In this document: one piece after another, positions 36,976 through 58,008 of the stretch
How the letters are laid out: the number at the start of each line of letters is the position of its first letter
Position numbering within the stretch: the first letter of the stretch is position 1
NCBI GenBank assembly: GCA_036400935.1
Contig: DASWWW010000003.1
Location: 101,083 to 165,082 of the forward strand
Direction: 5' to 3'
Source of the DNA: Minisyncoccota bacterium
GTDB lineage: Bacteria > Patescibacteriota > Minisyncoccia > Phycocordibacterales > UBA6065
DNA length: 64,000 bases
Notes under the pieces: generated by a model
The model's database searches: none
The model's input: the letters and a program-made list of their open reading frames with translations, nothing else
Told to the model about the DNA's origin: nothing
Position numbers and translations under genes: made by a program

Positions 36976-36994
36976 TTTAGGATTTGGAATCGCG

Positions 36995-37029
36995 AAAGCC
37001 GCCTTATCGGGCGGCTTTCGTTTTTTTTA
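36995..37029. terminator. Bidirectional Rho-independent terminator between nrdB and the convergent TrmB-like gene
   Basis: GAAAGCCGCC-ttatc-GGCGGCTTTC followed by GTTTTTTTT. Preceded by an A-rich run on the opposite strand. Confidence 0.6.
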
Positions 37030-37812
37030 TTTCAATCCCTTCCAGGCGAGCTCGAAGAAGAATCTCATCATATTGTGAATAGTTTGATCCTCGATGATTA
37101 TGCCGATCGGATTGCGTTCTTCAAAGTTCACGATCGAAACCCTGTTCTCTGCATAGACCGTCACTTCGCCTTTGAAAGGGAACTGGTCCGCGGACATGTG
37201 CCGTACGACGGGAACTATTTCTTTCTTAAAGCCAGCGTATATGTTTCCTACGAAAGCCAGGTCGGTTTTGGTATTTGGCAATATTCCTCGGGTGGTTATG
37301 CCAATCTTTTCTTTGGTGCGCCTATAACGCTCAAAGAATTTTTTTGGCATGAAATCCAGAAGGCCGGATACGTTTGAAAGACCAAGCATCTCATACTTCT
37401 TTTTAACGTTGATATGGTCTTCAAATACAGAAACGACACCCTCATGGCCTTCGTAGTAGGTGATCTTTGGTTTGTTTGGCAGGCTTTCAAATACTCCTTC
37501 GAGTTCTGGAATGAGCTTTTTTGCCTTTTCGAATGATTCATCCGCTTTTTCCTTCTGACGTCGCGCGAAGCTGAGGAGCTTTTGAGGCTGATTAGCCTTA
37601 TAGTATAGTTTTTTGCCTTTTTCTATCTCGCTTACTAGTCCCTTAATGGAGAGGTCCGTGAGGATCTTATAGACAGTGCTGCGATTGAGTCTTGTCTCCT
37701 TCGATATGTGAGAAGGGAAGCCACCACCTTTTTCGATGAGCAGGGCGTATATTGCTGCCGACTTCGGATTGAGGCCGGCTTCTTTTAGTGGCGGAATAAG
37801 GTTGCTTTCCAT
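37027..37812 (-). CDS. TrmB-family transcriptional regulator (module 1)
   Basis: N-terminal TrmB-type wHTH (LKEAGLNPKSAAIYALLIEKGGGFPSHISKETRLNRSTVYKILTDLSIKGLVSEIEKGKKLYY), then a ~170-aa C-terminal domain. Confidence 0.75.
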   Translation of the reverse strand: MESNLIPPLKEAGLNPKSAAIYALLIEKGGGFPSHISKETRLNRSTVYKILTDLSIKGLVSEIEKGKKLYYKANQPQKLLSFARRQKEKADESFEKAKKLIPELEGVFESLPNKPKITYYEGHEGVVSVFEDHINVKKKYEMLGLSNVSGLLDFMPKKFFERYRRTKEKIGITTRGILPNTKTDLAFVGNIYAGFKKEIVPVVRHMSADQFPFKGEVTVYAENRVSIVNFEERNPIGIIIEDQTIHNMMRFFFELAWKGLK

Positions 37813-37948
37813 GACCTGATATAATCACATTCTCCTATTTTTGTCACTTTGTACGAACAAAAATGCAAAGACCATGCTTTTGCCCTTTATTTATAAGGGT
37901 TTTATGCATATTTAATGTTTAATGCCTAAGACAAATTCATAGACGTGG

Positions 37949-39058
37949 ATGTATTCTCCTGCTATGAGTAAACATGCCAAAATAATCTTGGGAATTCTCG
38001 TTGTCGCGGCTTTATTTGTTTGGGGAGTCGTCAGCCAGAAGAATGTGAGCGATATGAGCGTTATTCAGATAGGGCTTATGGCGCCCCTTTCGGGCAATGT
38101 TGCATTCCTTGGCGAGGGAATAAGAGACGCGGCTATTATGGCGGAAAGGGAGCTTAATGCCAGACCGGAGAGCAAGTATGCTTATGAAGTTATCGTCGAG
38201 GATGATGCCTTTGACGTTAAAAAGACGGCGAGCGCGGTTCAAAAGCTCGTAAGCATTGATCGCGTCTCTGCGCTTATTTCCCTCGCGTCCGCCGCAGGAA
38301 ATGTCGTCAATCCTGTTGCCGAGAGAAATCATATAGTTCATTTTGGCATCGCTTCAGACCCGAACGTTGCGAATGGGGACTATAATTTCGTCCACTGGAC
38401 TCCGCCTGCCGAAGAGGCAAAGGTCTTTGTGTCCGAGCTCAAGAGAAGGGGTTACAAGAAAGTCGCGATATTAGGCGCAAATATCCAGGGCGTTGCGGCG
38501 GTGGCTGAGGCCGTAATCCAAGAGACTAATGGTACGGATGTCTCTGTGGTGAATAATCAGGTTTTTGATTTCGGCACCAAAGACTTCCGAACAATGATTG
38601 TCAAAGCTGAAACCACAAGGCCAGATATCTATCTTCTTCTTGCTTTCAGTCCCGAGCTTGAGATCATGACGGGCCAAATTAGAGATTTGGGCGTTAAAGC
38701 ATCCGTCACCTCGATAGAGTCCTTCGAGCAGAGTGATCGGCCCCAGATGTACGAAGGCCTTTGGTATGTAAATGCGGCCGACAGCACGAACGAGTTTAAT
38801 GAAGCATACAAGTCTTTGTATGGCCGGGTGCCTTCGCTTGGCGCGGGCAATGCCTACGACATAGTGCATCTCATCGCGACTGCCGCAGAAAAAGTTTCTG
38901 GGAACCCTACGCCCGACAAGATCGCTGAAAAGCTTTATGAGATCAGGGGTGAGAGAGGTGCGCTCGGAGAGCTTTCTGTGGGACCAGAAGGATTGGTGCG
39001 GTCGAAGGCTGTGGTCCGCGAAATCCGAGATGGCAAGCCGGTGACGATAGGGAAGTAA
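37949..39058 (+). CDS. ABC transporter substrate-binding protein, branched-chain amino acid (LivK/Peripla_BP_6) family, membrane-anchored (SBP1)
   Basis: N-terminal TM anchor, then the IQIGLMAPLSGNVAFLGEGIRDAAIMAERELNA motif typical of the LivJ/K family. Confidence 0.8.
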   Translation: MYSPAMSKHAKIILGILVVAALFVWGVVSQKNVSDMSVIQIGLMAPLSGNVAFLGEGIRDAAIMAERELNARPESKYAYEVIVEDDAFDVKKTASAVQKLVSIDRVSALISLASAAGNVVNPVAERNHIVHFGIASDPNVANGDYNFVHWTPPAEEAKVFVSELKRRGYKKVAILGANIQGVAAVAEAVIQETNGTDVSVVNNQVFDFGTKDFRTMIVKAETTRPDIYLLLAFSPELEIMTGQIRDLGVKASVTSIESFEQSDRPQMYEGLWYVNAADSTNEFNEAYKSLYGRVPSLGAGNAYDIVHLIATAAEKVSGNPTPDKIAEKLYEIRGERGALGELSVGPEGLVRSKAVVREIRDGKPVTIGK

Positions 39059-39100
39059 TCAAAAAAGCCGCGACTCGCGGCTTTTTTGTGCCAAAGATTC

Positions 39101-39880: not shown

Positions 39881-39961
39881 ATGTGTATTAATTATTCGCT
39901 TTTCGCCGAATTATATACAAATAATACCATTCATATAGTATAACGGCAAGCCAATATACAT

Positions 39962-41071
39962 ATGAAAAAATACATATACATTGTCATTGCGATCGTCGTG
40001 ATTATAGCGGTATGCGTTTCGGTAAATAGGGTAGATAAGGATACTGCCGTGGCAGAGCGGCCAATAAAGATCGGCGCGGTTATCTCGCTCTCGGGTCCAG
40101 CGGCTGCATTCGGCGAATACGCGAAAAGCGGCATGGAGCTTGCGGCAAAGGAAATAAATTCCAAAGGCGGAATGAAGGGCCGAACTGTCGAGATCGTATT
40201 CGGGGACGACAAGACCGATCCGAAGTCAGCCGTGTCGGCCTTCAATAAGCTGTCGAGCGTAGACGGCGTGGACGCGTACGTCGGCGGGCTCTGGGATTTT
40301 ATGGCTCAGCCGCTTTTGCCGCTCGCCCTTTCAAGCAAGACCGCTTTCATATCGCCGTCGCAGTTCAGAATTGAAGGCGCTTTCGACCTTAACGAGCAGT
40401 CGTTCGTGATGCTTACCGATTTTGATAAGGTCATCTCGAGCCTTAGGCCATTCTTGGAGAAAAGCGACGTGAAGAAAATCGCTGTTGTCCATTTTGCTTC
40501 GGGTTTTGGCAGGGAGATCGCCGAAACGATCGATTCGATAAGCCAGGATTTGGGCAAGGGAAAGATTATCGATGAGCAATACGCAGCGATCGGGACAAAT
40601 GACTTCAAGACCACGATCGCAAAGCTCAAGGCCGCCAATGTCGATACCGTCTTTCTCGATATGGTCGACATTGACCCGATAACGTTTCTCAAACGATCAA
40701 AGGAGATGGGATTCGCTCCAAAATTCATCACATACAATGGCGCGCTCGATTCGTTCAAGCAGACCGATATGCAGCTCGCCGAAGGGGTGTTCATTCTTGA
40801 TTGGGAATTCGCGGGCCCTCGCTTCGATAAGCTCTATCAGGACACGTACGGCAGGATCGCGTCCAAGTCCGTGAGCAAGGCATATGACGCCGTATATATC
40901 CTGGCTGAGGCAATAGCGAATACCAACAGCAGGGAAGATGTCGCCGCATATGTAGAGTCGCATTCGTTCGAAACCATGAATGGCACGATCCGGTTCTTGC
41001 CAACGCACGCGGTTGAGACGACGGATGTGTTGCTGAAGGTCGTTAGGGCGGGGAAGGCGATGGCTATTTAA
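39962..41071 (+). CDS. LivK-family ABC substrate-binding protein (SBP2)
   Basis: TM anchor plus IKIGAVISLSGPAAAFGEYAKSGMELAAKEINSKGG. Confidence 0.8.
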   Translation: MKKYIYIVIAIVVIIAVCVSVNRVDKDTAVAERPIKIGAVISLSGPAAAFGEYAKSGMELAAKEINSKGGMKGRTVEIVFGDDKTDPKSAVSAFNKLSSVDGVDAYVGGLWDFMAQPLLPLALSSKTAFISPSQFRIEGAFDLNEQSFVMLTDFDKVISSLRPFLEKSDVKKIAVVHFASGFGREIAETIDSISQDLGKGKIIDEQYAAIGTNDFKTTIAKLKAANVDTVFLDMVDIDPITFLKRSKEMGFAPKFITYNGALDSFKQTDMQLAEGVFILDWEFAGPRFDKLYQDTYGRIASKSVSKAYDAVYILAEAIANTNSREDVAAYVESHSFETMNGTIRFLPTHAVETTDVLLKVVRAGKAMAI

Positions 41072-41801: not shown

Positions 41802-41826
41802 GCCGTCATCATAGCTGGACGCTATA

Positions 41827-41849
41827 AAATGTCAATAATCCTGACATTT
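41827..41849. promoter_or_regulatory. Candidate TrmB operator palindrome AAATGTCA-ATAATCC-TGACATTT
   Basis: TGTCA-N7-TGACA in the divergent region between TrmB3 and SBP3. Confidence 0.45.
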
Positions 41850-41952
41850 TGTGATGGTTGAAACTTGGCTCAAATAAAAGACTTTTACCGGCAAATCCGA
41901 TGAGAAAAAGGGCGGCCCGTTACATATAAAGGGAATGCGCTAGTATGGCGTC

Positions 41953-43044
41953 ATGACAATAAAAGCAAAAATATTCTCGGCCGCCCTGGCTATCGTACTA
42001 ATCGTTGGCATCGCGACCTTTATCGGCAATCGCGAGGCCGATCAGAATTCCGCGGGCTTCAAGGTCGGTTTGATCTCGATTCTTTCTGGAGACTATGCTG
42101 CCGTCGGCGAAGCGTTCAAGAACGGCGCTGTGCTCGCCCAAGAGGAATACAATGCGGCGCATCCTGCCGCGCCCGTCGAGCTCTACATTGAGGACGACGG
42201 ATTCAGTGGCGGGCGCGGCGTGAGCGCGTATCAGAAGCTTGTCGGCTTGGACAAGGTGGACGCGCTAATAAACGTCTCGACTCCGACAATCGATTCGATA
42301 TATGAAACCGTCTCAAAGACTGACATGCCCGTGATCCAGGGCGGAGAACAGGGCCGGGAGCCTTCGGACGACAACGTCTTTGGCATATATCCATCGAGCA
42401 TCGAATCCGAATACGACTACGGCGTCTATATGCGCGAGCAAGGCATCCGCGAGATGGCCCTCGTCTATACGAACATTGATGCAATGGTGCGTTTCGTCGA
42501 TGCGTTCAAAGAAGGCTTTCAAGGCAAGACGACCGATTTCATAATCAAGGCCGATGAGAAGGACCTCCGTCCGCACGCGCTAAAGGTGGCGGCGTCCGGA
42601 TACGAGACTGTCGGCACATTTATCGTGCCGCAGCAGGGCGCGCAGTTCCTAAAAGAGTACTTGAAGGTTGCTCCAAAAAAGCCGAAGTTCTTCTTTGATA
42701 CAAATTTCCAATCAGGCTTTACCGATTACGAGCGCATTCTCGGAGATCTGACTATTCTCGACGGCAGCATCGTTGGAAGCATGAACATTCCGACTACTGA
42801 TCAGTTCAGGGCATCATACAAAGCTCGCTTTGGTTCGGACGCCGGCTTTCTTGCCGACATAGGCTATGATGCATTCAATGTACTCGCGCGGACGCATGAT
42901 GTTGATCCAAAAAAGTGGCAGGAGAATATCAAAAAGCTCAGCATGGTAGGAGCGAGCGGAGTCACCAAATTCAGCGAGAAGGGGAATCGCAAGCCGGATA
43001 CGAAGATGATGGTTATGAAAGGTGGAAAAATTTCCGAAATCTAG
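41953..43044 (+). CDS. LivK-family ABC substrate-binding protein (SBP3)
   Basis: TM anchor plus FKVGLISILSGDYAAVGEAFKNGAVLAQEEYNAAHP. Confidence 0.8.
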   Translation: MTIKAKIFSAALAIVLIVGIATFIGNREADQNSAGFKVGLISILSGDYAAVGEAFKNGAVLAQEEYNAAHPAAPVELYIEDDGFSGGRGVSAYQKLVGLDKVDALINVSTPTIDSIYETVSKTDMPVIQGGEQGREPSDDNVFGIYPSSIESEYDYGVYMREQGIREMALVYTNIDAMVRFVDAFKEGFQGKTTDFIIKADEKDLRPHALKVAASGYETVGTFIVPQQGAQFLKEYLKVAPKKPKFFFDTNFQSGFTDYERILGDLTILDGSIVGSMNIPTTDQFRASYKARFGSDAGFLADIGYDAFNVLARTHDVDPKKWQENIKKLSMVGASGVTKFSEKGNRKPDTKMMVMKGGKISEI

Positions 43045-43102
43045 GCCGCCAAAACCGTCCCCTCCAGGGCGGTTTTGCTTTGCGCCATTCGTGCTATTCT
43101 GA

Positions 43103-43987
43103 GTGTACAAATCTACCGCCATGGACATAGTCCCACAGCTCGTACTGAATTCCATCATCGCCGGCGCCATCTATATGATGATTGCGCTGGGCTTTAACCT
43201 GATTTACTCGACGGCCAAATTCTTCGACCTCGGCTACGGCGTTCTTACGGCTATCGGCGGCTACGCAACATTCTTCTTTTACAAGAAGCTTGGCCTCGAC
43301 CTCTCCATCGCTATCATCCTCGGCGTTGCTATCGCGGGCGCCATCGGCTATGCGGTGCAAAAGATCGTGTATAAGCCGCTTCGTGCGCGTAAGGCGTCCA
43401 ACATGGTCATGCTCGTGGCATCGCTCGGCGTATTTACCGCATTGCAGGCGCTCATCGCCATTTTCTTCTCGAGCCAGTTCCAGACGCTCTCCATGAATGC
43501 GGGCGGGGACAGGGTATTCGACATCGGCGGGGCGGTCATCACTCAGGTTCAGCTCATCATTCTCGTTTCAGGACTCGTCATCATGGGCATTCTCGGCTTC
43601 GTCTTGAAAAAGACTATGTTCGGCAAGGCGGTGAAGGCCGTTGCCGATGACGAGGAGGTCTCCAAGATCGTCGGTATCAATACGAACAAGGTCGTCTCCG
43701 GCGTATTCATCATCGGCTCGATGATAGCGGGACTCGCCGGCATATTCGTCGGCTTTGATACGGGAATCGAGCCGACGATGGGCATGTCTCTGTTGTTGAA
43801 GGGAGTGATCGCGTCCATCGTCGGCGGCATCGGCAACGTGTATGGAAGCGTGCTCGGCGCATTCCTCCTCGGCTTCGTCGAGAACTTCGGCATCTGGAAG
43901 ATTTCGGGCGAGTGGAAGGACGCGATCGCGTTTGGCCTGCTCATAATTTTCCTGCTGTGGAGACCGCAGGGGATTTTGAAAAGGTAG
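43103..43987 (+). CDS. Branched-chain amino acid ABC transporter permease (LivH-like)
   Basis: Polytopic BPD_transp_2-type permease (LNSIIAGAIYMMIALGFNLIYS...). The true start may be MDIVPQ at about 43121. Confidence 0.8.
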   Translation: MYKSTAMDIVPQLVLNSIIAGAIYMMIALGFNLIYSTAKFFDLGYGVLTAIGGYATFFFYKKLGLDLSIAIILGVAIAGAIGYAVQKIVYKPLRARKASNMVMLVASLGVFTALQALIAIFFSSQFQTLSMNAGGDRVFDIGGAVITQVQLIILVSGLVIMGILGFVLKKTMFGKAVKAVADDEEVSKIVGINTNKVVSGVFIIGSMIAGLAGIFVGFDTGIEPTMGMSLLLKGVIASIVGGIGNVYGSVLGAFLLGFVENFGIWKISGEWKDAIAFGLLIIFLLWRPQGILKR

Positions 43988-44012
43988 GCCCGCTTAATTT
44001 ACAAATAACATC

Positions 44013-45119
44013 ATGAGCAAAAACAAACTTTGGATAATTGTAGGGATTCTCGCGGTACTGATCATCGCCCTTGTTTGCCTAAGCGGGTCTCGCTCAGGTG
44101 ACGGGCTCAGCAAGCCGATCAAGATTGGCGTAATGGCCATACTTAGCGGCGATGCAGCTGCGTGGGGAAACAATGCAAAGAAGGCTATCGACATGGCTAT
44201 TGAGGAGCATAATGCCAAGTATCCGGAAAAGCAGGTGGAGACCGTCTATGTCGATACAAAGGGCGACTCGAAGGAGGCCGTTACCGGGTTTACGAAGCTC
44301 ACCAAGGTAGATAAGGTGCAGTTCATAATCGGCCCTCTTTTTTTGAATGAGCTGACTTCGATTGATCCTCTCGTGCAGGCTTCCGGCATTCCTGTAATCT
44401 CTCCAGCCTATACACCTAAGGAAAACAGGAAGAATCCAAAGAATCCGCTGCTCATGTGGATGGACGCCATGATCGAGACTGAGCGAATCGCTCGCTACGT
44501 GATTGGTCAGGGGGTAAAGACTGTCTCCATAATTCATTCCACTGATGCTTGGGAAACGTCGGTTGCTGGGGAGTTCAAGAAGCAGGTCGAGGCGGCAGGC
44601 GTAAAGGTCCTGGCTGTCGAGACCGTTCAGCAGGATGCTAACGACGTCAGGCTTTCGGTTACGAAGCTCATCGCAGGCAAGCCTGAGGCGGTCTTCCTCT
44701 CGACTTACTTCCAGTATATAAATTCGCTTAAGGCGCTCGGCGAGCAGAGATATTCGGGAAAGATGTTCAGCATCGAGATCGATGATTATCTTGCTGGAGA
44801 GACCAAGGATTTCGTGCGAGAGGTCTTGGCTATAAATCCTGAAAATTACAGCTCGGATTTCAGTGCCGCATTCGAGAAGAGATACGGCGTACGCCCGGGC
44901 ATGCCAGCCGGCCATGCGTTCGACGCGGCTAACTTGCTCTTGGAAAATATCGCAAAGGATTCGAGCAAAGAGAGCGTATTCAACGATTTCAAGACGAGAA
45001 GCTCGTACAAGGGCGTCTCCGGCGAGATCACTTTCACTCCTGATGGAAAGACGCTTTTCCCGACGGCTCTTTACCGAATAAGCGACGGCAAGATAGAGAG
45101 GGTAGGACCGTTGGAATAA
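44013..45119 (+). CDS. LivK-family ABC substrate-binding protein (SBP4)
   Basis: TM anchor plus IKIGVMAILSGDAAAWGNNAKKAIDMAIEEHNAKYP. Confidence 0.8.
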   Translation: MSKNKLWIIVGILAVLIIALVCLSGSRSGDGLSKPIKIGVMAILSGDAAAWGNNAKKAIDMAIEEHNAKYPEKQVETVYVDTKGDSKEAVTGFTKLTKVDKVQFIIGPLFLNELTSIDPLVQASGIPVISPAYTPKENRKNPKNPLLMWMDAMIETERIARYVIGQGVKTVSIIHSTDAWETSVAGEFKKQVEAAGVKVLAVETVQQDANDVRLSVTKLIAGKPEAVFLSTYFQYINSLKALGEQRYSGKMFSIEIDDYLAGETKDFVREVLAINPENYSSDFSAAFEKRYGVRPGMPAGHAFDAANLLLENIAKDSSKESVFNDFKTRSSYKGVSGEITFTPDGKTLFPTALYRISDGKIERVGPLE

Positions 45120-45123
45120 AAGC

Positions 45124-45990: not shown

Positions 45991-46046
45991 TTGTAATAAG
46001 TCGGACTAGTGCTATCCTTTAATTAATTACTAATAGCCATACTTTA

Positions 46047-47186: not shown

Positions 47187-47195
47187 CCTCAATCA

Positions 47196-48689: not shown

Positions 48690-48717
48690 ATTCAGAGGCT
48701 ATCAGAATCACCTATTG

Positions 48718-48736
48718 TTGTCAATTTTTTTGACAA
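48718..48736. promoter_or_regulatory. Candidate TrmB operator palindrome TTGTCAA-TTTTT-TTGACAA
   Basis: Perfect palindrome (TGTCA-N7-TGACA core) 29 nt upstream of the TrmB4 start. Confidence 0.45.
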
Positions 48737-48856
48737 AATAACCCAAATTCTAAATTATGGCTATAAATATAGATTAAATTTGTATATATAAACAATTACT
48801 TTTGACTATTGTCTCATATACTTTACACTATTCAATATTAATTGTGTTATAAATAT

Positions 48857-49918
48857 ATGAAAAACAAACTGATTTTCCTTGGAGTAGCGATCGCCATCGT
48901 CTGCGTCGGCGTCTTTGTCAACAGGGACTCTTCGCACGAAGTAATAAAGATCGGCGTTGTCGCACCTCTTACTGGACCAGGCTCTGCTTTCGGCAATTCG
49001 CTCGTGAAGGCGATCGAGCTCGCTCAGCGCGATCTTGGAGGCACCAAATATCGCTACGAAGTCGTGATCGAGGACGATGCGACTAATCCCGCGACGTCCG
49101 CGAGCGCGGCGCAGAAAATGATCCAGATAGACGGCGTAAAGGCCATCATCTCTGCTACGTCCGGCAGTGGTAACGCGATCGCGCCCATCGCCGAAGCTTC
49201 GAAAGTGCCGCTCATCTGTATCGCGTGCGCGGACAAAAGGATCGGCACTGGCAAGTACAGCTATACCTCTTCGGTTCAGGTCGAGGACGAAGCAAAGGTC
49301 TTCGTCGATCATGCGGTAAAGAATGGGGCAAAGACCGTCGGCGTCTTGAGCCAGAATCATCCGGGAATAAACGCCGTGGCTGATGCGGTCAAGGCCGAGG
49401 CGATCTCGCGCAATATTCCAGTCGTATACGAGGAAAGGTTCGACGGCAACAACCGCGATTTCAAGACGATCATAAAGAAAGCCGCGGCGGCAAACGCTGA
49501 CATCTATTTCTTGCAGGCATTCCCTCCGGCTCTCGATATCGTGGGCAAGGAATTGGCTGCTCTCGGCGTAAAGAACGTGGCGGGAGGCGCGGGCGCATTC
49601 ACTATCGCGGCTGAGCCGACTTTGTTCGAAGGCAAGTGGTATACCGAGGCTCTCGCCGACGCAGATTTCACCGAGCGATTCTCAAAGGAGTTCCCAGATG
49701 TCCGATTCAACATTCGCACCGGCCCGTATGGCTACGATGCGTTCAATATGCTCGTTCAGGGCTTGGACAAGGATGCTGACATGGCTGCATATCTCGCCGG
49801 CATCGATACATTTGACGGCAAGGTGGGGCAGTACAAGACCGACGGCAACTGGTTCCGCTCGACTCCGGGCGTCTGGATGGTAAAGGACGGAAAGTTCGTA
49901 GTTATTTCGCAGGATTAG
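48857..49918 (+). CDS. LivK-family ABC substrate-binding protein (SBP6)
   Basis: Start MKNKLIFLG (internal to the track ORF 48842). IKIGVVAPLTGPGSAFGNSLVKAIELAQRDLGG. Confidence 0.8.
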   Translation: MKNKLIFLGVAIAIVCVGVFVNRDSSHEVIKIGVVAPLTGPGSAFGNSLVKAIELAQRDLGGTKYRYEVVIEDDATNPATSASAAQKMIQIDGVKAIISATSGSGNAIAPIAEASKVPLICIACADKRIGTGKYSYTSSVQVEDEAKVFVDHAVKNGAKTVGVLSQNHPGINAVADAVKAEAISRNIPVVYEERFDGNNRDFKTIIKKAAAANADIYFLQAFPPALDIVGKELAALGVKNVAGGAGAFTIAAEPTLFEGKWYTEALADADFTERFSKEFPDVRFNIRTGPYGYDAFNMLVQGLDKDADMAAYLAGIDTFDGKVGQYKTDGNWFRSTPGVWMVKDGKFVVISQD

Positions 49919-50663
49919 GCGGAAGCAAATTCCACAGGCACGTGAATACGTGGTCCATCATCTCGGCGATGGCGGGCGAGTCGATGATCATCGAATAGAC
50001 ATCGTCGTCGCGGTGCGAAAAGAGGGCGACCTTCTTGCCATAGACGATAGTCGTGCCTTGGAATGCCTTGCCTGGCATGAATCGCGTTTCGCGGTGGCTG
50101 TCGGATGCATAGTTTTTGGGTGTACGTCCTTCGAATTCGCCGGGTACGATCATTTTCGTGAATATGCCGAGCTTCTTCTTGTACTCGAGCCTCTGCGGCA
50201 GGATTTTCGGCATATAGTCGGCGAGCTTCGGGTGAGATATGGTGTGGAGCTCGCGGATTCCTTTGAGGTGAGGGTTGTTGTATACGTCCTCGATGACGAT
50301 TTTCACGCCCTCGGCTCCCGTATAGGTCTGAACTGAAGACGTGTGCGAGGCGTCCTTTGACAGGCCCTGGAGAAGGGGAAGGACGGAGTCGAGGAGGCTT
50401 TGCTTTTCCTCGAGGTCGCGCGACAGGCGGCTCGGATCTGCCGACAGGTAGCGCAGGACGTTGTTTTTCTTGTAGGACGAGACGAGCTTTTTCGACTCGA
50501 GCTCCTGGAGGGCGAGGTATACCGTCGAGCGGGGAAGGGCGGTGCCTTTTGCGATAAGAAATGCCGTCAGGTCGGCGCCTTTCTTGTGCTTGAGCATGTG
50601 CAAGTAGACTTTTGCCTGCTTGTCGTCGAGGCCGAGCTCGATAAGGGGTTGAGATAGATTCAT
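49902..50663 (-). CDS. TrmB-family transcriptional regulator (module 5)
   Basis: wHTH (LTAFLIAKGTALPRSTVYLALQELESKKLVSSYKKNNVLRY). Start placed at MNLSQPL; the track start MTVIM would lie inside the palindrome. Confidence 0.7.
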   Translation of the reverse strand: MNLSQPLIELGLDDKQAKVYLHMLKHKKGADLTAFLIAKGTALPRSTVYLALQELESKKLVSSYKKNNVLRYLSADPSRLSRDLEEKQSLLDSVLPLLQGLSKDASHTSSVQTYTGAEGVKIVIEDVYNNPHLKGIRELHTISHPKLADYMPKILPQRLEYKKKLGIFTKMIVPGEFEGRTPKNYASDSHRETRFMPGKAFQGTTIVYGKKVALFSHRDDDVYSMIIDSPAIAEMMDHVFTCLWNLLPPNPAK

Positions 50664-50669
50664 GATTAC

Positions 50670-50686
50670 TGTCATAAATTATGACA
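50670..50686. promoter_or_regulatory. Candidate TrmB operator palindrome TGTCA-TAAATTA-TGACA
   Basis: Perfect TGTCA-N7-TGACA immediately upstream of the TrmB5 start. Confidence 0.45.
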
Positions 50687-50823
50687 CCAATACGCTATCA
50701 TGAAATCTTTATTAAATAAAGATTTTTGACGAATTCTACCAAATAGTGTCCAAAGTATGTGGCTATTATTGCGCCCTTCCATAGAATGGGCCCATAGCTC
50801 ATAACTGCTATACTTCACACATT

Positions 50824-51936
50824 ATGAACAAGAAAAGCATCGTCTGGTTGGTCGTGGTTATTATCGCAATCGCTGTTATCGCAAGCGCGGCCGTCAAGAA
50901 GCCGTCGGCCCAGATTGGCACCCTCAAAGTCGGCGTAATTGCCGTCGAGACTGGCGCCGCGGCATATATCGGCGTATCGACCGAAAAAGGCATCGAGATC
51001 GCCAAGGAGGAGCTCGCCGCAAAGCATCCAGACTTCAGGATCGAGACAATAAACGAGGACAGCATGTTCACGCCCAAGGGTGGCATCGACGCGTACAACA
51101 AATTGCGCGCGACCGACAACATTGACTCGATCATTACCATGGCAAGCAACGTGAGCGTGGCCGTAGAGCCTCTTGCGGCCAAGGATGGCATCCTTCATGT
51201 CGCCGCATCGACCCTCGCTAACGGATACACCACTCCTGAGGACCTTTCGTTTAGGCTTACGGCCAAGGGAGATCTCGAGGCCGGTCCGGCTCTCGCGTAT
51301 CTCAAGGGCAAGGGCGTCACGAAGCTCGGCATTCTCGCCATGCAGAACGAGATCGGCGTCTCATTGCGCGACTCTCTCAAGGCGCAGGCTGCGGATTACG
51401 GCATAACGATCGTCATCGAGGAGAATTATCCTGCTGATGCGACCGATTGGAGGACGTCCCTTATAAAAGTCCGCCAGGCAAAGCCGGAGGCACTCTATCT
51501 GGCAGCCCTCGCGGCGCATTCAGCGCAGATTCTCAAGCAGGCCGACAGCCTCGGTTTCGATCCGCTCTTTATCAGCTATCGCGCGACTGAGGATCCTGCT
51601 CTCATAAAGAATGCAGGTACCCTTGCCGAGAAGCTCGTCTATACGACCTCGTTCGACGCCGAGAACAGCCAGCTTGCCAAGGATTTCGCGGCGGCATACA
51701 AGGCAAAGTATGACGAGGAGGTAAACGGCTATGCGGCTGAGGCGTACGAGTCGATGAAACTTACCGCTGAATCGTTCATGAAATGCGGCAAGGATTATGT
51801 GTGTATTAAGGATTATTTTTTCTCTATAAAGAATCGGCCGTCAGTCCTCGGCCCAATCAGCTTTGACCGGAACGGCGACGTATCGTATCCGTTCATCGTG
51901 AAGACTGTGAGGGAGGGGAAGTTCGTGAAGATATAG
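50824..51936 (+). CDS. LivK-family ABC substrate-binding protein (SBP7)
   Basis: TM anchor plus LKVGVIAVETGAAAYIGVSTEKGIEIAKEELAAKHP. Confidence 0.8.
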   Translation: MNKKSIVWLVVVIIAIAVIASAAVKKPSAQIGTLKVGVIAVETGAAAYIGVSTEKGIEIAKEELAAKHPDFRIETINEDSMFTPKGGIDAYNKLRATDNIDSIITMASNVSVAVEPLAAKDGILHVAASTLANGYTTPEDLSFRLTAKGDLEAGPALAYLKGKGVTKLGILAMQNEIGVSLRDSLKAQAADYGITIVIEENYPADATDWRTSLIKVRQAKPEALYLAALAAHSAQILKQADSLGFDPLFISYRATEDPALIKNAGTLAEKLVYTTSFDAENSQLAKDFAAAYKAKYDEEVNGYAAEAYESMKLTAESFMKCGKDYVCIKDYFFSIKNRPSVLGPISFDRNGDVSYPFIVKTVREGKFVKI

Positions 51937-52698
51937 CTACTTTGAGATATTCCAAAGCCCCATAAAGAAGTCGGTATAGCTTTTCGCGATCCTCTCGCTT
52001 TTAACGGAGAAGACGGCTATCTGGGAGCCGTACATGTAAAAGCAGATTCTGTTGTCATAGATCGTGATGTTGAGGTTCCCGGTAAAGGCGATGGGCATAA
52101 GCCTATATTTAAATAGTGGGCGTCCGTTGTTTTCCCTCAAGAATTCTTTCTGCGACGAGCTGCCAATATACAGGAGTTCGATGCCTTTCTTTTGGCGTTG
52201 ATATTCGTACTCGTCAAAGTATTTTCCGTGATTCTTAACGTATTCGTCGCCGCTACCGCCAAGGACGTACATCTTTGAGCCGGGCCTTGCAGCGCGAAGT
52301 ATCTCAAACTCGTTCGCGACAAAGGCCTCCTGCCCACGATACGATTCGAGCTCTTGGATGTCTGGAATGAGGAAGCTCTTTTCGAGCTGTCTCACGACGC
52401 TATCGGCGATCCTCTTTTTGTGTTCGAAGAAGCCGCCGAGCTTTGATGGGGGATAGGGGAAGAATCTTTTCCTGCCTTTGACGATAGTGTGCCCGGTCAG
52501 GCCTTTTTTCTCGAGAGATACGAGCGTGTCATAGACGAATTGCCTGTGCAGGCCGCTATCCTTCGCGATGGCGGTCGAACCCGACTCGCCGAGCGACAGG
52601 AGGGAGGTGTAGACCTTTGCTTCTTTGCTGCTCAATCCAAGCTCCTTGAGAGAAGAAAAGATCTCGTCCTTTGCGCTGTTGTCAATAATTTGTGACAT
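51937..52698 (-). CDS. TrmB-family transcriptional regulator (module 6)
   Basis: wHTH (LSLGESGSTAIAKDSGLHRQFVYDTLVSLEKKGL). Confidence 0.7.
   Translation of the reverse strand: MSQIIDNSAKDEIFSSLKELGLSSKEAKVYTSLLSLGESGSTAIAKDSGLHRQFVYDTLVSLEKKGLTGHTIVKGRKRFFPYPPSKLGGFFEHKKRIADSVVRQLEKSFLIPDIQELESYRGQEAFVANEFEILRAARPGSKMYVLGGSGDEYVKNHGKYFDEYEYQRQKKGIELLYIGSSSQKEFLRENNGRPLFKYRLMPIAFTGNLNITIYDNRICFYMYGSQIAVFSVKSERIAKSYTDFFMGLWNISK
52680..52697. promoter_or_regulatory. Candidate operator TGTCA-ATAATTTG-TGACA overlapping the TrmB6 start codon
   Basis: TGTCA-N8-TGACA. Shares TGTCAATAAT with the module-3 site. Confidence 0.35.
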
Positions 52699-52744
52699 TG
52701 TTTCCGTTTGAGCCTTATTTGATGGCTATTTTTGTCTGTAATTA

Positions 52745-52765
52745 TGTCATCATAATTTACTGACA
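52745..52765. promoter_or_regulatory. Candidate operator TGTCA-TCATAATTTAC-TGACA upstream of SBP8
   Basis: TGTCA-N11-TGACA, 21 nt upstream of the SBP8 GTG start. Confidence 0.35.
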
Positions 52766-52785
52766 CTAAAAAAACAAGTGTTATA

Positions 52786-53856
52786 GTGCACAATATGAAA
52801 AGAATATTGTACATAGCAGGTAGTGTCGCGGTCATAGCGATTTTGATTATTTCAAACGGAGGCTCGAACGCCAATAAGGACAGGGAGATCGTCATTGGCG
52901 CGGCCCTGTCGCTTTCGGGCGCGGCTGTTCAGGATGGCGAGAGCATCAAGAGCGGCTTGGAGCTCGCGCGGGCAGACCTCAAGGCGGAGGGGATCGAAGT
53001 TAGGATAATTTATCAAGACGACAAGACTGAGCCGAAAAATGTCGTTGGCTCCATAAATGCTCTCGCGGCTCAGGGGGTGGAGGCGATTGTCGGGCCGACC
53101 TGGAGCTATTTGGCGGATGCCGGCGTTCCAGTTGCCGACAGCCTGAAAATTGTCACCGTTATGCCCGCAAATACTTCCGAATACGTGAACGCTCGGAGCG
53201 ATTACGCGTTTTATACGACGACAAAGATCGAGAAAATGCTTCCTGTGCTTTCAGAGTGGATATCCGAGAGGGACAAGAAGAAAGTGGCTGTGATCAGTGG
53301 ACAAGGATCGTGGTATCAGGTTGTGCGCAGCGGCGTTCAGAGGGCGGTCAAGGACGCCGGCGCCGAGATCGTGCTTTCCGAAGAGATCCCTTATGGTGCG
53401 GACTCGTCGGCAATCGCCTCGGCGCTCTCGAAGGTGAAGGCTGCCAAGGCAGATGTTCTCTTTTTCGAGGTGGATGACGAGCAGGCGATATTCTCGATGC
53501 TCAAGAAAGTCAGGGAGCAGAAGATTCCCGTAGACATACTGTCGGTCACTACCGCTGTCGAAAGGGTCAAGGGTGATTTGAAGATAGATAATGGCGTATA
53601 CGCGCTTGCGCCCGAAACTTCCGAGGAGTTCAAGGCGAAATATGAGGCAGCCTACGGCAAGCTGGCTCCTGCTTATGCCGACAGCGCGTACGATTCTCTC
53701 ATGCTTCTCGTGGACGCGATAAGGAATAGGGATGAAATGACCCTTGCCTCATATCTCAGGTTCGAGACCGACTACAAGGGCTTTGCCAAAGAGTACGATT
53801 TTGACGCTCGCGGCGACATCATCGGCGGCGCCTGGGTCGTAAGGGATCTGCGCTAA
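52786..53856 (+). CDS. LivK-family ABC substrate-binding protein (SBP8)
   Basis: GTG start, or MKRIL at about 52795. REIVIGAALSLSGAAVQDGESIKSGLELARADLKAEG. Confidence 0.75.
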   Translation: MHNMKRILYIAGSVAVIAILIISNGGSNANKDREIVIGAALSLSGAAVQDGESIKSGLELARADLKAEGIEVRIIYQDDKTEPKNVVGSINALAAQGVEAIVGPTWSYLADAGVPVADSLKIVTVMPANTSEYVNARSDYAFYTTTKIEKMLPVLSEWISERDKKKVAVISGQGSWYQVVRSGVQRAVKDAGAEIVLSEEIPYGADSSAIASALSKVKAAKADVLFFEVDDEQAIFSMLKKVREQKIPVDILSVTTAVERVKGDLKIDNGVYALAPETSEEFKAKYEAAYGKLAPAYADSAYDSLMLLVDAIRNRDEMTLASYLRFETDYKGFAKEYDFDARGDIIGGAWVVRDLR

Positions 53857-53953
53857 TTAGCTAAGCGATCAAAGACGCGAGGTGGACAACCATCTCGCGT
53901 TTTTGCATCCATCTGCTATCGTTAAGCCAGCCATTATTAGCTATACATTCCGT

Positions 53954-55102
53954 ATGACCAAAGCGACGAAAGTTATAGGAGCGATTATCATTATCATTCT
54001 CGTGATTTGGGGCATTTCTGCCGCCCAGAAAAAGAACGTAACGTCTCAGGGCCCGGTCAAGATCGGGGGCGCCTATATTCTCTCCGGCCCAGTCGCTCTC
54101 GTTGGCGAGCTTCAGAGGAACGCTACCGCGATGGCCGTAAAGGAAATCAATGACGCTGGCGGAATTAATGGCCGACCGTTCGAGGTTGTCATGGAGGACG
54201 CTCAGTATGAGGCAAAGACAGCCGTAAATGCATATCAGGCTCTCAGGCAGAAGGGTATCAAGTTCATTATCGCCGACGGATCGCCTGTCGCAGCTCCTAT
54301 CCGACCGATGGCCGTCGCTGACGGCAATTTCATGATGGTTCCTGGTGCTACAGCCCCGTCGTATTTTGATGGCGATAATCGCACGTGCCGCATCGCCCTT
54401 ACCGCGAAGAATTTCGGGCCGGCTATCGCTGACGCTCTCGTGGCGAAAGGCTATAAGAAGGTCGCGACTTTCTATCCTGAGAACGAGTCAGGACGCGGAT
54501 TTTATGATGAATTTACCAAGGCTTTTGCCGCAAAGGGCGGGGAGGTTGTCGTTTCGGAATTCTATAGCGCTTCTGGCTCGGGCGACTATCGAACCAATCT
54601 CGCCAAAATAAAGGCGAAGCTCAAGGAAGTCGACGCCATTGTCATGCAACAGGTGCTCAATACTATCGAGCCCATGTTCAAGCAGATGTCAGATCTCGGT
54701 ATCGACAAACCGATCGTTACTGACTACTACACAATCAACAATCCTGCTTTCAAGAATCTCTCGCTCGCAAACGGCATCGAATTCATCGACTACGAGTACG
54801 CCAAGACCGACAAAGCGACTGACAGCAAGCGGGTAAAGGATTTCAAGGCGAATTACCGCGCCCTCTATGACTCCGATCCGACATTCTTCGCCGCTTCTAC
54901 ATACGATTCGATCTACATTATCGCCGATGCAATCAAGGAGGTCGGTGACGACCCTGCCAAAGTTGGCGCATACGTAAGCAAGCTCAAGAATTATCCTGCG
55001 ATTACTGGAACCGTCTCGTTCAATGACGACTGCGAAGTCGACCGAACGATATCATTGAGCAAGGTCGTTGATGGAAGGATCGTTATTAGCGAGAATAAAT
55101 AG
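53954..55102 (+). CDS. LivK-family ABC substrate-binding protein (SBP9)
   Basis: Start MTKATKVIGAIIIIILVIWG (track ORF begins at 53882). VKIGGAYILSGPVALVGELQRNATAMAVKEINDAGGINGRPFEVV. Collinear with SBP5 (identical CRIALTAK, DDCEVDRT, LKNY segments). Confidence 0.8.
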   Translation: MTKATKVIGAIIIIILVIWGISAAQKKNVTSQGPVKIGGAYILSGPVALVGELQRNATAMAVKEINDAGGINGRPFEVVMEDAQYEAKTAVNAYQALRQKGIKFIIADGSPVAAPIRPMAVADGNFMMVPGATAPSYFDGDNRTCRIALTAKNFGPAIADALVAKGYKKVATFYPENESGRGFYDEFTKAFAAKGGEVVVSEFYSASGSGDYRTNLAKIKAKLKEVDAIVMQQVLNTIEPMFKQMSDLGIDKPIVTDYYTINNPAFKNLSLANGIEFIDYEYAKTDKATDSKRVKDFKANYRALYDSDPTFFAASTYDSIYIIADAIKEVGDDPAKVGAYVSKLKNYPAITGTVSFNDDCEVDRTISLSKVVDGRIVISENK

Positions 55103-55105
55103 TCT

Positions 55106-56245
55106 ATGAGCAAAGTTCTTAAAATAACTGCGGGCGCTGTAGTTCTGATCCTTATCGTCTGGGGTATTATTGCGAGCAGCAAAAAAGATGTTGTATCGAC
55201 CGAGCCGATCAAGCTTGGCGTCTCCACGATCCTTTCGAGCGACTGGGCGGCGTTGGGCCAGAATATAGTGAATGCCTCGAAGCTTGCTGTCGAGGAAATC
55301 AATGCTCGCGGCGGCATAGACGGCCGGACTGTCGAGTTGGTGATCGAAGATGCCGGCCTCGACAGCAAAGCGGGGCTTTCCGCGGCTCAGAAGCTCGTGA
55401 ACGTCGATAAGGTTAAGTACATTATCGGTGGAACCTCGAGCAATGGAACCATGGCAGCGGCGCCTGTGGTAAATCAGGGCAAGGCGGTTTATTTAACTCC
55501 GGTCACTGGTGGTTCGAACGTCGACAATGCCGGAGACTATGTATTCAGGACAGCGAACTCGGATTTGCTCGCGGGTAGGGATTTGGCTTCAGCCGCTTTT
55601 CGACTTGGATACAAGAATGTTGCCACGATCTCCGAAGTCACCGAATACACTCTCGACATAAAGAAGACATTCGAAGCGTCTTTCAAGGAATTGGGCGGAA
55701 TGATCGCGTCCTCTGAGGAATTTCAGCCAGGAACGTCGGATTTCAGAACTATCGTAGCCAAAGTTAAGGCTTCGAAGCCTGACGCTACGCTTGTCCTGTC
55801 TCAGACCGGAACAGGTGGCGCGAAGTTTATAAAGCAGGCTCGAGAGGCGGGAATCGTTGTTCCGCTTTTCTCTGACTTCACATTCATAACTAATGGGGAT
55901 GCCAAGGGAATTGTCGGCTCGTTCGAAGGCGCTTATTTCGCGGATCCCGCATACGATGCAAATTCGGCAACGACGATTGCTTTCTTCAAGAAATATAAGG
56001 ATGCATACAAGGCAGATCCACTTATTCCTTTCCATGCCGCCTCTGCATACGACTCGATTATGATGATCGCTGATGCAATCGATGCGGTTGGCGACAACAG
56101 CGCCAAGGTTCAGACGTGGCTTTCGACTAAAGTTCAGGACAGGAAGGGCTTGATGGGAACGTATTCGATCGATGCCAAGGGAAATTCCGATCTCGGATTC
56201 GTGATAAAGCAGGTAAAAGGGGATAAATTCGTCGAAGTTAAATAA
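55106..56245 (+). CDS. LivK-family ABC substrate-binding protein (SBP10)
   Basis: TM anchor plus IKLGVSTILSSDWAALGQNIVNASKLAVEEINARGGIDGRTVELV. Confidence 0.8.
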   Translation: MSKVLKITAGAVVLILIVWGIIASSKKDVVSTEPIKLGVSTILSSDWAALGQNIVNASKLAVEEINARGGIDGRTVELVIEDAGLDSKAGLSAAQKLVNVDKVKYIIGGTSSNGTMAAAPVVNQGKAVYLTPVTGGSNVDNAGDYVFRTANSDLLAGRDLASAAFRLGYKNVATISEVTEYTLDIKKTFEASFKELGGMIASSEEFQPGTSDFRTIVAKVKASKPDATLVLSQTGTGGAKFIKQAREAGIVVPLFSDFTFITNGDAKGIVGSFEGAYFADPAYDANSATTIAFFKKYKDAYKADPLIPFHAASAYDSIMMIADAIDAVGDNSAKVQTWLSTKVQDRKGLMGTYSIDAKGNSDLGFVIKQVKGDKFVEVK

Positions 56246-56962
56246 ATGCAAAAGGAAATCCTCCTAAAACTCGATAACGTGTCCGTCCATTACGGCGGAG
56301 TAAAGGCTCTTGATGGGGCTTCTGTTCAGATTGATGAGGGAGAGGTCATCGCTCTCATGGGCCCGAACGGCGCGGGTAAGTCTACCGTGCTCAAGGCGCT
56401 CTTCGGCATTGCTCCGATCGAATCGGGCCGTGTTGTATGGCGCGAGAAGGCAATAAAGCCCCTCTCACACGAGATGGTCGAGCGCGGCGTGGCATTTGTA
56501 CCGCAGGGCAGGCGCGTCTTCAAGCACCTGACCGTTCGAGAGAATCTCGAGGTTGGCGGATATTCAGTAAAGGATACGAAGCTCGTCGCAAAGCGTGTCG
56601 ATGAAGTGCTCGAGCTCTTCCCTGTGCTCAAGCAAAAGATCAAGGCGAAGTCAGGAACCCTTTCCGGCGGCCAGCAGCAGATGCTCGCCATTGCCCGAGG
56701 CCTGATGATCGACCCGAAAGTCCTCCTTCTCGACGAGCCGACCCTCGGCCTTGCTCCGAAAGTCGTTCTCGAGGTCTTTGCCAAGATAAAGGAGATAAAC
56801 GAGCGCCGCGGCATTGCCGTCGTGGTCGTAGAGCACAACCTGAAATCCCTTATGGCTATAGCCTCGCGCGCCTATGTCATGGACAAGGGCAAGGTCGCCT
56901 TTAGCGGTTCCGCAAAAGAGGTCGTGGACAGCGACATCCTCAAGAAAATCTTTACCCGATAA
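56246..56962 (+). CDS. ABC transporter ATP-binding protein (LivF-like)
   Basis: Walker A GPNGAGKSTVLKAL, signature LSGGQQQMLAIARGLM, Walker B LLLDEPTLGL. Confidence 0.85.
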   Translation: MQKEILLKLDNVSVHYGGVKALDGASVQIDEGEVIALMGPNGAGKSTVLKALFGIAPIESGRVVWREKAIKPLSHEMVERGVAFVPQGRRVFKHLTVRENLEVGGYSVKDTKLVAKRVDEVLELFPVLKQKIKAKSGTLSGGQQQMLAIARGLMIDPKVLLLDEPTLGLAPKVVLEVFAKIKEINERRGIAVVVVEHNLKSLMAIASRAYVMDKGKVAFSGSAKEVVDSDILKKIFTR

Positions 56963-56988
56963 CCGCCGTGGCATGGGCGGTTTTTCTG
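56961..56988 (+). terminator. Rho-independent terminator closing the SBP/Liv array
   Basis: ACCGCC-gtggcatg-GGCGGT followed by TTTTT. Confidence 0.6.
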
Positions 56989-57977: not shown

Positions 57978-58008
57978 AAAAGCTCCGCCTTTAGGGCGGA
58001 GCTTTTCA
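57978..58008. terminator. Rho-independent terminator hairpin. Serves the + strand membrane-protein gene and abuts the 3' end of the minus-strand RNase P RNA.
   Basis: AAAAGCTCCGCC-tttag-GGCGGAGCTTTT. Confidence 0.55.

Follow-up and report, generated by a model that had tools for sequence, protein, structure and literature searches.

In the 64-kb stretch of DNA analysed here (the window), a locus of approximately 20 kb (positions 37027–56988) carries ten genes for substrate-binding proteins (S1–S10), six genes for regulators (R1–R6) and single genes for LivH-, LivM-, LivG- and LivF-like proteins, as judged from the list of open reading frames and Pfam searches. By its gene content it is a Liv/HAAT-type ATP-binding cassette (ABC) importer locus of Paceibacteria, and the host, judged from its bacterial RNase P RNA, from protein identities and from the lineage of related loci, is a bacterium of that group within the Candidate Phyla Radiation (CPR); a metagenome-assembled genome labelled 'Candidatus Paceibacterota bacterium' encodes NCBI proteins identical to S7 and R3. 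The gene order, with arrowheads giving direction, is R1< S1> R2< S2> R3< S3> LivH> S4> LivM> S5> LivG> R4< S6> R5< S7> R6< S8> S9> S10> LivF>. All six regulator genes are on the minus strand, and each is head-to-head with a binding-protein gene, forming the divergent pairs R1|S1, R2|S2, R3|S3, R4|S6, R5|S7 and R6|S8.

A sequence-only reading of this DNA had described ten Peripla_BP_6 proteins, six TrmB-family regulators, six divergent modules and one set of translocon genes, and this inventory is borne out. The ten binding proteins all exceed the PF13458 (Peripla_BP_6) cut-off of 31.7 bits, and the six regulators exceed the PF01978 (TrmB) cut-off of 25.6 bits, R3 being borderline; the gene coordinates confirm the six modules. 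Hidden Markov models built from the locus proteins found no further copy of any of these families in the rest of the window, the LivH, LivM, LivG and LivF genes included. The simple module picture of that reading needs to be extended in one respect, namely that R3|S3 and R6|S8 head operons that carry translocon genes. These genes are distributed over two operons, S3-LivH-S4-LivM-S5-LivG and S8-S9-S10-LivF, and hairpins delimit transcription units after nrdB, between S1 and R2, after S3 and after LivF. One-off misassembly of the locus can be ruled out because seven contigs from independent Logan assemblies carry R4 and six samples yielded the contig shown. The flanks consist of housekeeping genes, with nrdA and nrdB upstream and RNase P RNA, a tetratricopeptide repeat (TPR) protein and murJ downstream.

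Binding proteins and regulators

S1–S10 are all full-length Peripla_BP_6 proteins (PF13458 scores of 105.9–204.2 bits). Each has one N-terminal hydrophobic segment (Kyte-Doolittle 2.2–3.1) and none of the ten has a lipobox. Pairwise identities amongst them are 21–33%, except for S5 and S9 (52%). The components belong to the same families as those of E. coli LivJ/LivK-LivHMGF (HAAT, TC 3.A.1.4), that is, Peripla_BP_6, two BPD_transp_2 permeases and the LivG and LivF ATPases. E. coli Liv likewise has more than one binding protein per translocon; its two binding proteins, however, are free in the periplasm, whereas here there are ten, each with a hydrophobic segment and without a lipobox. The locus also differs in that the binding-protein and regulator genes are interleaved amongst the translocon genes and in that there are six local TrmB-like regulators; E. 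coli Liv is controlled by Lrp.

Ligands could not be assigned by homology. The S proteins score 42–101 bits with the LivJ/LivK model of NCBIfam (NF011933, cut-off 477; S3 is unmatched) and at most 83 bits with the urea/amide UrtA models TIGR03407 and TIGR03669 (cut-offs approximately 493–495), and their relatives in the PDB are distant HAAT binding proteins only. The ligand contacts of LivJ, Ser79, Thr102, Tyr202 and Glu226, were located by alignment with the verified sequence of 1Z15_A; none of the ten S proteins has the complete set of four, in an alignment of approximately 25% identity in which single positions are uncertain. The sequence-only reading had favoured amino-acid-like or amide ligands, and these are not established. 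Predicted pocket positions differ amongst S1–S10. Of the ten pocket positions that can be aligned in the S7 family (35 sequences), seven are 86–97% conserved, against a mean column conservation of 63%, and Arg takes the place of Glu226 of LivJ.

It might be supposed that some of the S proteins are surface sensors or adhesins of an episymbiotic lifestyle, with a turnover that reflects host or phage pressure and not nutrient range. Their exposure at the surface and presumed membrane anchoring would suit such a role, as would the incomplete LivJ contact set, the sharp differences in S complement amongst relatives and the presence of a phage-associated Bro-N gene within the array of L008, the closest related locus. 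We nevertheless regard this as improbable, since S4, S5, S9 and S10 are packed 0–56 nt from translocon genes on the same strand, all ten proteins are full-length members of their family, the pocket positions of the S7 family are conserved, as expected of ligand binding, and no kinase, chemoreceptor or other signalling partner is encoded nearby.

The PF01978 scores of the regulators range from 26.3 to 51.5 bits. R1, R2, R4, R5 and R6 align with each other over their full length at 20–30% identity (all-versus-all comparison), and a profile built from the other regulators matches R3 in its C-terminal part. R4, the only regulator modelled, gave an AlphaFold2 model with a confidence (predicted local distance difference test) of 86.6, in which a helix at residues 75–98 is followed by an alpha/beta domain. 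The best Foldseek match of this model is TrmBL2 (5bpd, E 1e-13), followed by TrmB (3qph, 4e-11) and a sugar-binding domain (2f5t, 2e-6); for the C-terminal domain of the model the matches are the PLD-fold proteins NucT, Zucchini and Nuc. The full-length alignment, the profile match of R3 and the fold match of R4 dispose of the proposal that each regulator has a distinct C-terminal domain of approximately 170 aa; judged from alignment and fold, these are versions of one diverged, homologous PLD-like domain common to all six.

Resemblance to TrmB of Thermococcus and Pyrococcus, and to its short paralog TrmBL2, extends to the PF01978 winged helix, the recognition Tyr, the long dimerisation helix and the PLD-like domain. 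Tyr46 (R4 numbering) is invariant in a 20-sequence family alignment and is equivalent to Tyr50, the DNA-recognition Tyr of TrmB (PMC4158304). TrmB, in its association with the trehalose/maltose ABC operon, likewise adjoins an ABC binding-protein gene and has a palindrome at the promoter; that TrmB can control an ABC operon locally is already known (PMC4158304). The present locus differs in its bacterial host with sigma-70-type promoters, in a partner that is Liv-type and not sugar-type, and in having six paralogs in one locus. TrmBL2 is an abundant, general chromatin protein with little sequence preference, whereas specific palindromes accompany the regulators here. In TrmB, the second C-terminal subdomain holds six of the seven sugar contacts (Asn305, Gly320, Met321, Val324, Ile325 and Glu326; PMC4158304); the regulators, at 245–261 aa, are of the size of TrmBL2 (approximately 260 aa), and the R4 model ends with the first subdomain. 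Amongst orthologs the C-terminal domain is conserved to a similar degree as the DNA-binding domain (43–91% compared with 40–99%), while identity between paralogs is 20–30%. Together, the conservation of this domain and that of the binding pocket fit type-specific ligands for the regulator–receptor pairs (here called cassettes).

The regulator family comprises 22,274 cluster representatives at E<=1e-3. R3 is nearly an orphan, a word-based search of 5.8 billion proteins having returned only R3 itself and one homolog of 84% identity, and it stands divergently before the operon with LivH, LivM and LivG. Many family members are 370, 510, 650, 790 or 1060 aa long; in these, one winged helix is followed by 2–7 tandem copies of the PLD-like C-terminal domain (P0066, P0067, P0069, P0077 and P0122), an architecture that seems to be a multi-domain type of TrmB-like regulator not described before. 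At Paceibacteria loci without binding-protein genes (L013, L015, L020-L022, L027, L034 and L040) members of the family are still divergently paired with another gene, partners including those for a methyltransferase, a radical SAM/SPASM enzyme, the delta subunit of DNA polymerase III and small uncharacterised proteins. From its neighbourhoods, the family looks like a general local regulator in Paceibacteria.

Palindromes and promoters

Five of the six regulator genes (R2–R6) have a palindrome at their 5' end, and four of these are far above chance in the window. TGTCA-N7-TGACA occurs three times, always at the 5' ends of R3, R4 and R5 (0.01 expected), and TGTCA-N8..11-TGACA twice, both times at R6 (0.09 expected); the N11 site at R6 overlaps the −35 box of the S8 promoter CTGACA-16-TATAGT. 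The palindrome at R2, ATTCG-N8-CGAAT, is not significant in the window alone and is retained as a candidate because it is conserved in two orthologous modules (L041 and L044). Four of the five, that of R2 included, are conserved in orthologous modules, in which type-specific sites are found: ATTCG-N8-CGAAT for R2, TTGTCAA-N5-TTGACA for R4, TTACTGTCATAAWTTMTGACA for R5 and TGTCA-N11-TGACA for R6|S8. The conserved palindromes argue for sequence-specific binding by these proteins, unlike TrmBL2. The TGTCA half-site is unlike the known motifs of TrmB.

Of the 52 divergent R|S spacers from all loci, 15 contain the N7 palindrome without mismatch, compared with at most 5 for any palindrome in 100 shuffles; when one mismatch is allowed it is found in 20 spacers, mostly 28–32 nt from the regulator start. 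In these 20, the regulator strand shows the geometry TTGACA-16/17-TAnnnT-6 to 9 nt-ATG in between 14 (strict TAnnnT) and 17 cases (relaxed). On this spacing it is a leaderless promoter of the regulator gene, with an operator half-site as its −35 box. The half-site on the S side was considered as the −35 box of a binding-protein promoter and rejected; a −10 element follows it in just 2 of 20 cases, and this half is therefore an operator half and not a promoter. The S gene has a separate consensus promoter in 21 of the 52 spacers (0.9 in shuffles), with its −10 element ending mostly 26–44 nt before the start codon. From the probable start of S8 (52795) it follows that the S8 mRNA would be leaderless. 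It should be noted that, taken as totals, the hits of the generic promoter and terminator scans do not exceed those in shuffles; what counts is only where individual sites lie and whether they are conserved across loci. The generic terminator scan also missed the hairpins between S1 and R2 and after S3, both of which are supported by folding.

Other conserved elements lie in the same spacers. A second box, TATGGCTATAAATA (a near-palindrome, TATrGCyATA; 48755–48770), is situated 25–30 nt to the S side of the R4-type palindrome and is present at the same position in L008, L003, L009, L011, L014, L018 and L024, inverted in some loci. The R5|S7 spacer contains a perfect A/T-rich palindrome, AAATCTTTATT-A-AATAAAGATTT (50703–50725), the core of which, CTTTATTAAATAAAG, is kept in the orthologous spacer of L041 and not in that of L044. 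ATTAAT is conserved in short binding-protein leaders.

Related loci and the proposed function

Retrieval with the R4-subfamily alignment as query gave 33 related genome loci, all of them (33/33) from Patescibacteria (CPR). R|S arrays inside a Liv operon are present in 14 of these and also on the contigs L003, L041, L042 and L044; array sizes elsewhere include eight S with six R genes in Wolfebacteria and seven S with six R genes in L012. The arrangement, which had been called highly atypical, is so in comparison with model bacteria but is a recurrent design in Paceibacteria. In L008 the core genes are 89–97% identical to those of the present locus, R4 is 94% and S6 83% identical, and all other modules are non-homologous; at the nucleotide level, homology is limited to the core genes, the LivG-R4-S6 block and the flank, and it ends at gene borders. 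L041 has R5-S7 (84% and 83% identity), R6, S9 and the core genes in common with the locus, lacks R4-S6 and has an R2-like/S2-like pair before LivG. L044 has R2-S2, R5-S7 and R4-S6 in changed order. Methyltransferase genes (in two genomes) and the Bro-N gene are non-transporter members of related arrays (L008 and L042; Table 1).

The pairs R2-S2, R4-S6 and R5-S7 thus recur across L008, L041 and L044 despite changes in order and position. The divergence of the regulators is correlated with that of the S proteins (Mantel r 0.68, reached in 0 of 2000 permutations; within-locus rho 0.50), and the best R partner is also the best S partner for 20 of 51 modules, where approximately one is expected. 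Functional coupling of the pairs, as proposed in the sequence-only reading, is supported to this extent, by recurrent pairs, correlated divergence and palindromes; one-to-one control is undercut by the identical operator core at R3, R4 and R5. A strict rule of one regulator type to one S type at all distances has to be rejected, as R4-like regulators at 40–46% identity switch partners.

The turnover of cassettes around a conserved core could in principle have arisen through old tandem duplications within the lineage, followed by drift and differential loss, with no exchange between genomes. All S and all R proteins are indeed paralogous, S5 and S9 most closely so, S1/S6 with R1/R4 resemble a duplicated module, and the modules have neither flanking recombination sites nor long repeats, the sole repeats at their borders being short paralogous coding stretches. 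Against this origin, L008 has non-homologous modules in the same slots of a core that is approximately 90% identical, module order is permuted in L044, and the R1-S1 pair departs from the rest of the locus in G+C content at third codon positions (GC3). The values for R1 and S1 are 0.52 and 0.54, and those for S10, S9 and S4 are 0.57, 0.60 and 0.62, compared with 0.68–0.78 for core and housekeeping genes, which suggests that cassettes were imported at different ages. A further point against it is a divergent TrmB-like/S7-type pair (L045:7015-9131; S protein 46% identical) on a contig of 29% GC labelled Woesearchaeota archaeon (GCA_016203175.1). That the contig is archaeal follows from its genes for an intein-containing aRF1 and a class I aminoacyl-tRNA synthetase, and the cassette type is therefore common to CPR bacteria and a DPANN archaeon. 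We consider duplication without exchange to be a poor explanation of the arrays.

The reading towards which we lean, if only slightly, is that the translocon genes are a conserved scaffold for receptor cassettes that can be replaced, each of which has its own local regulator, TrmBL2-like and sequence-specific. LivH, LivM, LivG and LivF would form the scaffold, and accessory receptor genes would occupy the gaps between and around them. The ten S proteins are very divergent and have a membrane anchor or signal segment at the N-terminus; each would presumably deliver a different ligand to one translocon. A cassette, of which there would be six, consists in this scheme of an S gene head-to-head with the gene for a regulator made up of a winged helix, a dimerisation helix and a PLD-like domain. 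The presumed target of each regulator, bound as a dimer, is the palindrome at the 5' end of the regulator gene, which would be the N7 site for R3, R4 and R5, the N8 and N11 sites for R6 and ATTCG-N8-CGAAT for R2. An R4-type regulator should repress itself, because its operator half-site is the −35 box of its own promoter, and R6 should directly repress S8-S9-S10-LivF, because the second R6 site covers the −35 box of the S8 promoter. The S genes of the other modules would have separate promoters, controlled perhaps by activation, through a second site or by looping. The signal received by the PLD-like domain would differ from type to type and would probably be a small molecule akin to the ligand of the cassette. 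Comparison of the relatives shows that, over evolution, the scaffold persists and cassettes come, go and change order.

Several observations weigh against this scheme. The subdomain that holds the sugar contacts of TrmB is absent from the regulators, as it is from TrmBL2; the claim that each regulator senses a different compound, made in the sequence-only reading, goes beyond what these TrmBL2-sized proteins reveal. No ligand is known for TrmBL2, which is the closest solved relative. For most modules, the promoter on which the palindrome sits is that of the regulator, approximately 75–130 bp from the S promoter where the latter can be placed; control of the S gene by the regulator can for this reason only be presumed, and the induction of each cognate binding protein that had been proposed does not follow from the positions of the sites. 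The TGTCA operator core is common to R3, R4 and R5, so that cross-talk is possible and clean one-to-one control is less likely. LivF is behind a promoter predicted to be controlled by R6, an awkward arrangement should all receptors depend on LivF. More distant R4-like regulators (40–46% identity) are paired with other binding-protein types. Finally, the genome may contain a second translocon outside the 64 kb seen.

Alternatively, the regulators might be effector-less TrmBL2-like proteins, acting as autorepressed local repressors or insulators that hold horizontally acquired cassettes at a fixed low level or shield them from read-through; the receptors would be truly diverse, with no ligand-specific induction. 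Such a role would be in line with their size and the missing sugar-binding subdomain (PMC4158304), with the location of the main palindrome on the regulator's promoter and not on that of the S gene, with S promoters that are near-consensus and apparently strong, with convergent gene ends that abut or overlap without terminators, and with the unrelated genes that adjoin family members elsewhere. It accounts less well for a C-terminal domain that is conserved type by type amongst orthologs as the DNA-binding domain is, with only 20–30% identity between paralogs, or for its 2–7 tandem copies behind one winged helix, which suit an autonomous sensor or interaction module; nor would it predict that cognate pairs survive rearrangement, or that an R6 site covers the S8 promoter. 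We consider this explanation unlikely, though it is the chief competitor of a scaffold with ligand-responsive cassettes.

A bolder version of the scaffold-and-cassette scheme holds that the R/S pairs are mobile, self-contained receptor cassettes, each comprising promoter, operator, regulator and receptor, exchanged horizontally amongst CPR bacteria and even DPANN archaea, which plug into translocon slots and give ultra-small auxotrophs a rapidly re-programmable, ligand-inducible uptake without an integrase. We regard this as conceivable but doubtful. No integrase is encoded amongst the genes of the locus or its flanks. A comparison with integron arrays can be drawn, as an analogy only: both have variable self-contained units at a conserved platform, with content that differs between close relatives. 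The locus differs from an integron in having no integrase, attC-like sites or flanking repeats, and in that each unit has its own promoter and regulator.

A further parallel is the Opp system of Borrelia burgdorferi, a reduced-genome auxotroph in which five differently regulated OppA proteins of varied structure share one ABC translocon (PMC5736914, PMC7822543). Borrelia Opp differs in belonging to the oligopeptide ABC family, in having no dedicated regulator for each binding-protein gene and in that its binding-protein genes are partly plasmid-borne; cassette turnover within the operon is not described for it. Since sharing of a translocon is known from E. coli Liv and Borrelia Opp, and local control by TrmB is also known, the locus does not constitute a new category of system. 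In the literature searched, TrmB in CPR/Patescibacteria is not described, nor are regulator–receptor arrays of this kind on one importer.

CPR bacteria, a large part of the diversity of bacteria, are without most biosynthetic pathways and are regarded as poor in transcription factors; how they choose their imports and regulate them is little understood. For Paceibacteria, the locus offers a concrete and testable regulatory logic, with a large family of TrmBL2-like local regulators, candidate operators and a leaderless promoter geometry. Matched regulator/receptor pairs would also form a natural library, the ligands of which would reveal what these cells scavenge, and, if the regulators are ligand-responsive, the pairs would be ready-made biosensor parts. 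More generally, the results show that an ABC-importer operon can keep its translocon as a conserved scaffold in evolution while the receptor cassettes on it are replaced.

Features and surroundings of the locus

The features of the locus, together with the non-transporter genes of related arrays, are summarized in Table 1.

Table 1. Coordinates of genes, candidate control sites and terminators, in positions of the window unless a locus is named
Feature	Position	Strand	Evidence or remark
Terminator hairpin, bidirectional, between nrdB and R1 3' end; left border of locus	36992-37021	.	13-bp stem then T run; folding z -4.7
R1, TrmB-like regulator, 261 aa	37027-37812	-	PF01978 41.1 bits
Inverted repeat ATTTTTGT-N12-ACAAAAAT in R1|S1 spacer; degenerate candidate operator	37837-37864	.	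repeat search
S1, binding protein; probable start 37964	37949-39058	+	PF13458 135.9 bits; 364-aa gene call in Logan contig
Terminator hairpin, bidirectional, between convergent S1 and R2	39060-39087	.	folding -19.2 kcal/mol, z -5.4
R2, TrmB-like regulator, 259 aa	39101-39880	-	PF01978 29.3 bits
ATTCG-N8-CGAAT palindrome, candidate R2-type operator	39894-39911	.	conserved in R2-like/S2-like modules of L041, L044
S2, binding protein; 3' end overlaps R3 by 8 nt	39962-41071	+	PF13458 157 bits
R3, most divergent regulator, 245 aa	41064-41801	-	PF01978 26.3 bits (borderline); C-terminal part matches family profile
R3 promoter TTGACA-16-TATGAT, 41835 down to 41808	41808-41846	-	-35 box overlapped by palindrome TGTCAATAATCCTGACA (41830-41846)
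S3, binding protein, first gene of LivH/LivM/LivG operon	41953-43044	+	PF13458 108.8 bits; 4ey3 sole PDB relative
Hairpin and T run 3' of S3	43050-43077	+	folding z -3.15
Candidate extended -10 element TGCTATTCT in front of livH, internal to operon	43092-43100	+	promoter scan
LivH-like permease (BPD_transp_2); probable start 43121	43103-43987	+	PF02653 138.3 bits; 97% identity over 118-aa part present in L008
S4, binding protein without own regulator, between livH and livM	44013-45119	+	PF13458 140.6 bits
LivM-like permease (BPD_transp_2)	45124-45990	+	PF02653 160 bits; 91% identity to L008 counterpart
S5, binding protein without own regulator	46047-47186	+	PF13458 153.7 bits; 52% identity to S9
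LivG-like ATPase	47196-47948	+	ABC_tran 84.8 bits; BCA_ABC_TP_C (PF12399) 35.6 bits; 91% identity to L008 counterpart
R4, TrmB-like regulator, 246 aa; 3' end abuts livG	47949-48689	-	PF01978 46.4 bits
Candidate operator palindrome TGTCAATTTTTTTGACA; left half is -35 box of predicted leaderless R4 promoter TTGACA-17-TAGCCT-6 nt-ATG	48719-48735	.	conserved in L008, L044
Candidate S6 promoter TTGACT-16-TACACT	48802-48829	+	same element in orthologous and related spacers
S6, binding protein; probable start 48857; 3' end overlaps R5 by 17 nt	48842-49918	+	PF13458 129.7 bits; 83% identity to L008 counterpart
R5, TrmB-like regulator; probable start Met5 at 50663	49902-50675	-	PF01978 34 bits; alignment; L041 ortholog 84% identity
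Candidate operator palindrome TGTCATAAATTATGACA, 6 nt upstream of probable R5 start	50670-50686	.	conserved in L041, L044
S7, binding protein; extended -10 element TGCTATACT 9 nt before ATG	50824-51936	+	PF13458 142.5 bits
R6, TrmB-like regulator, 253 aa	51937-52698	-	PF01978 51.5 bits
R6-type palindrome TGTCA-N8-TGACA, across R6 start codon	52680-52697	.	window scan
R6-type palindrome TGTCA-N11-TGACA; right half is -35 box of S8 promoter	52745-52765	.	conserved in L041
S8 promoter CTGACA-16-TATAGT	52760-52787	+	promoter scan
S8, binding protein, first gene of S8-S9-S10-LivF operon; probable start 52795	52786-53856	+	PF13458 105.9 bits
S9, binding protein; probable start 53954	53882-55102	+	PF13458 167.5 bits; 382-aa gene call in Logan contig
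S10, binding protein, top Peripla_BP_6 score	55106-56245	+	PF13458 204.2 bits; 58% identity to Wolfebacteria protein in L010
LivF-like ATPase	56246-56962	+	ABC_tran 122.7 bits; 89% identity to L008 counterpart
Terminator-like hairpin and T run, right border of locus	56961-56982	+	folding z weak, -1.25
Non-transporter, non-regulator genes within related arrays (methyltransferase, Bro-N)	L008:7977-8648, L008:15630-16430, L042:8198-8872		

Convergent genes meet without a terminator at several points. The 3' ends of S2 and R3 overlap by 8 nt (41064–41071) and those of S6 and R5 by 17 nt (49902–49918), and S7 abuts R6 (51936–51937) as LivG abuts R4 (47948–47949). Transcription that reads through from one cassette would therefore be antisense to the regulator gene that follows, and neighbouring cassettes could be coupled in this way. 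LivF is followed by a gene for a 311-aa protein without a Pfam match (57024–57959), which has a counterpart at the equivalent position in L008 with nucleotide similarity only at the start and end of the gene. RNase P RNA of bacterial type A is encoded close downstream of it, on the minus strand (58007–58345).

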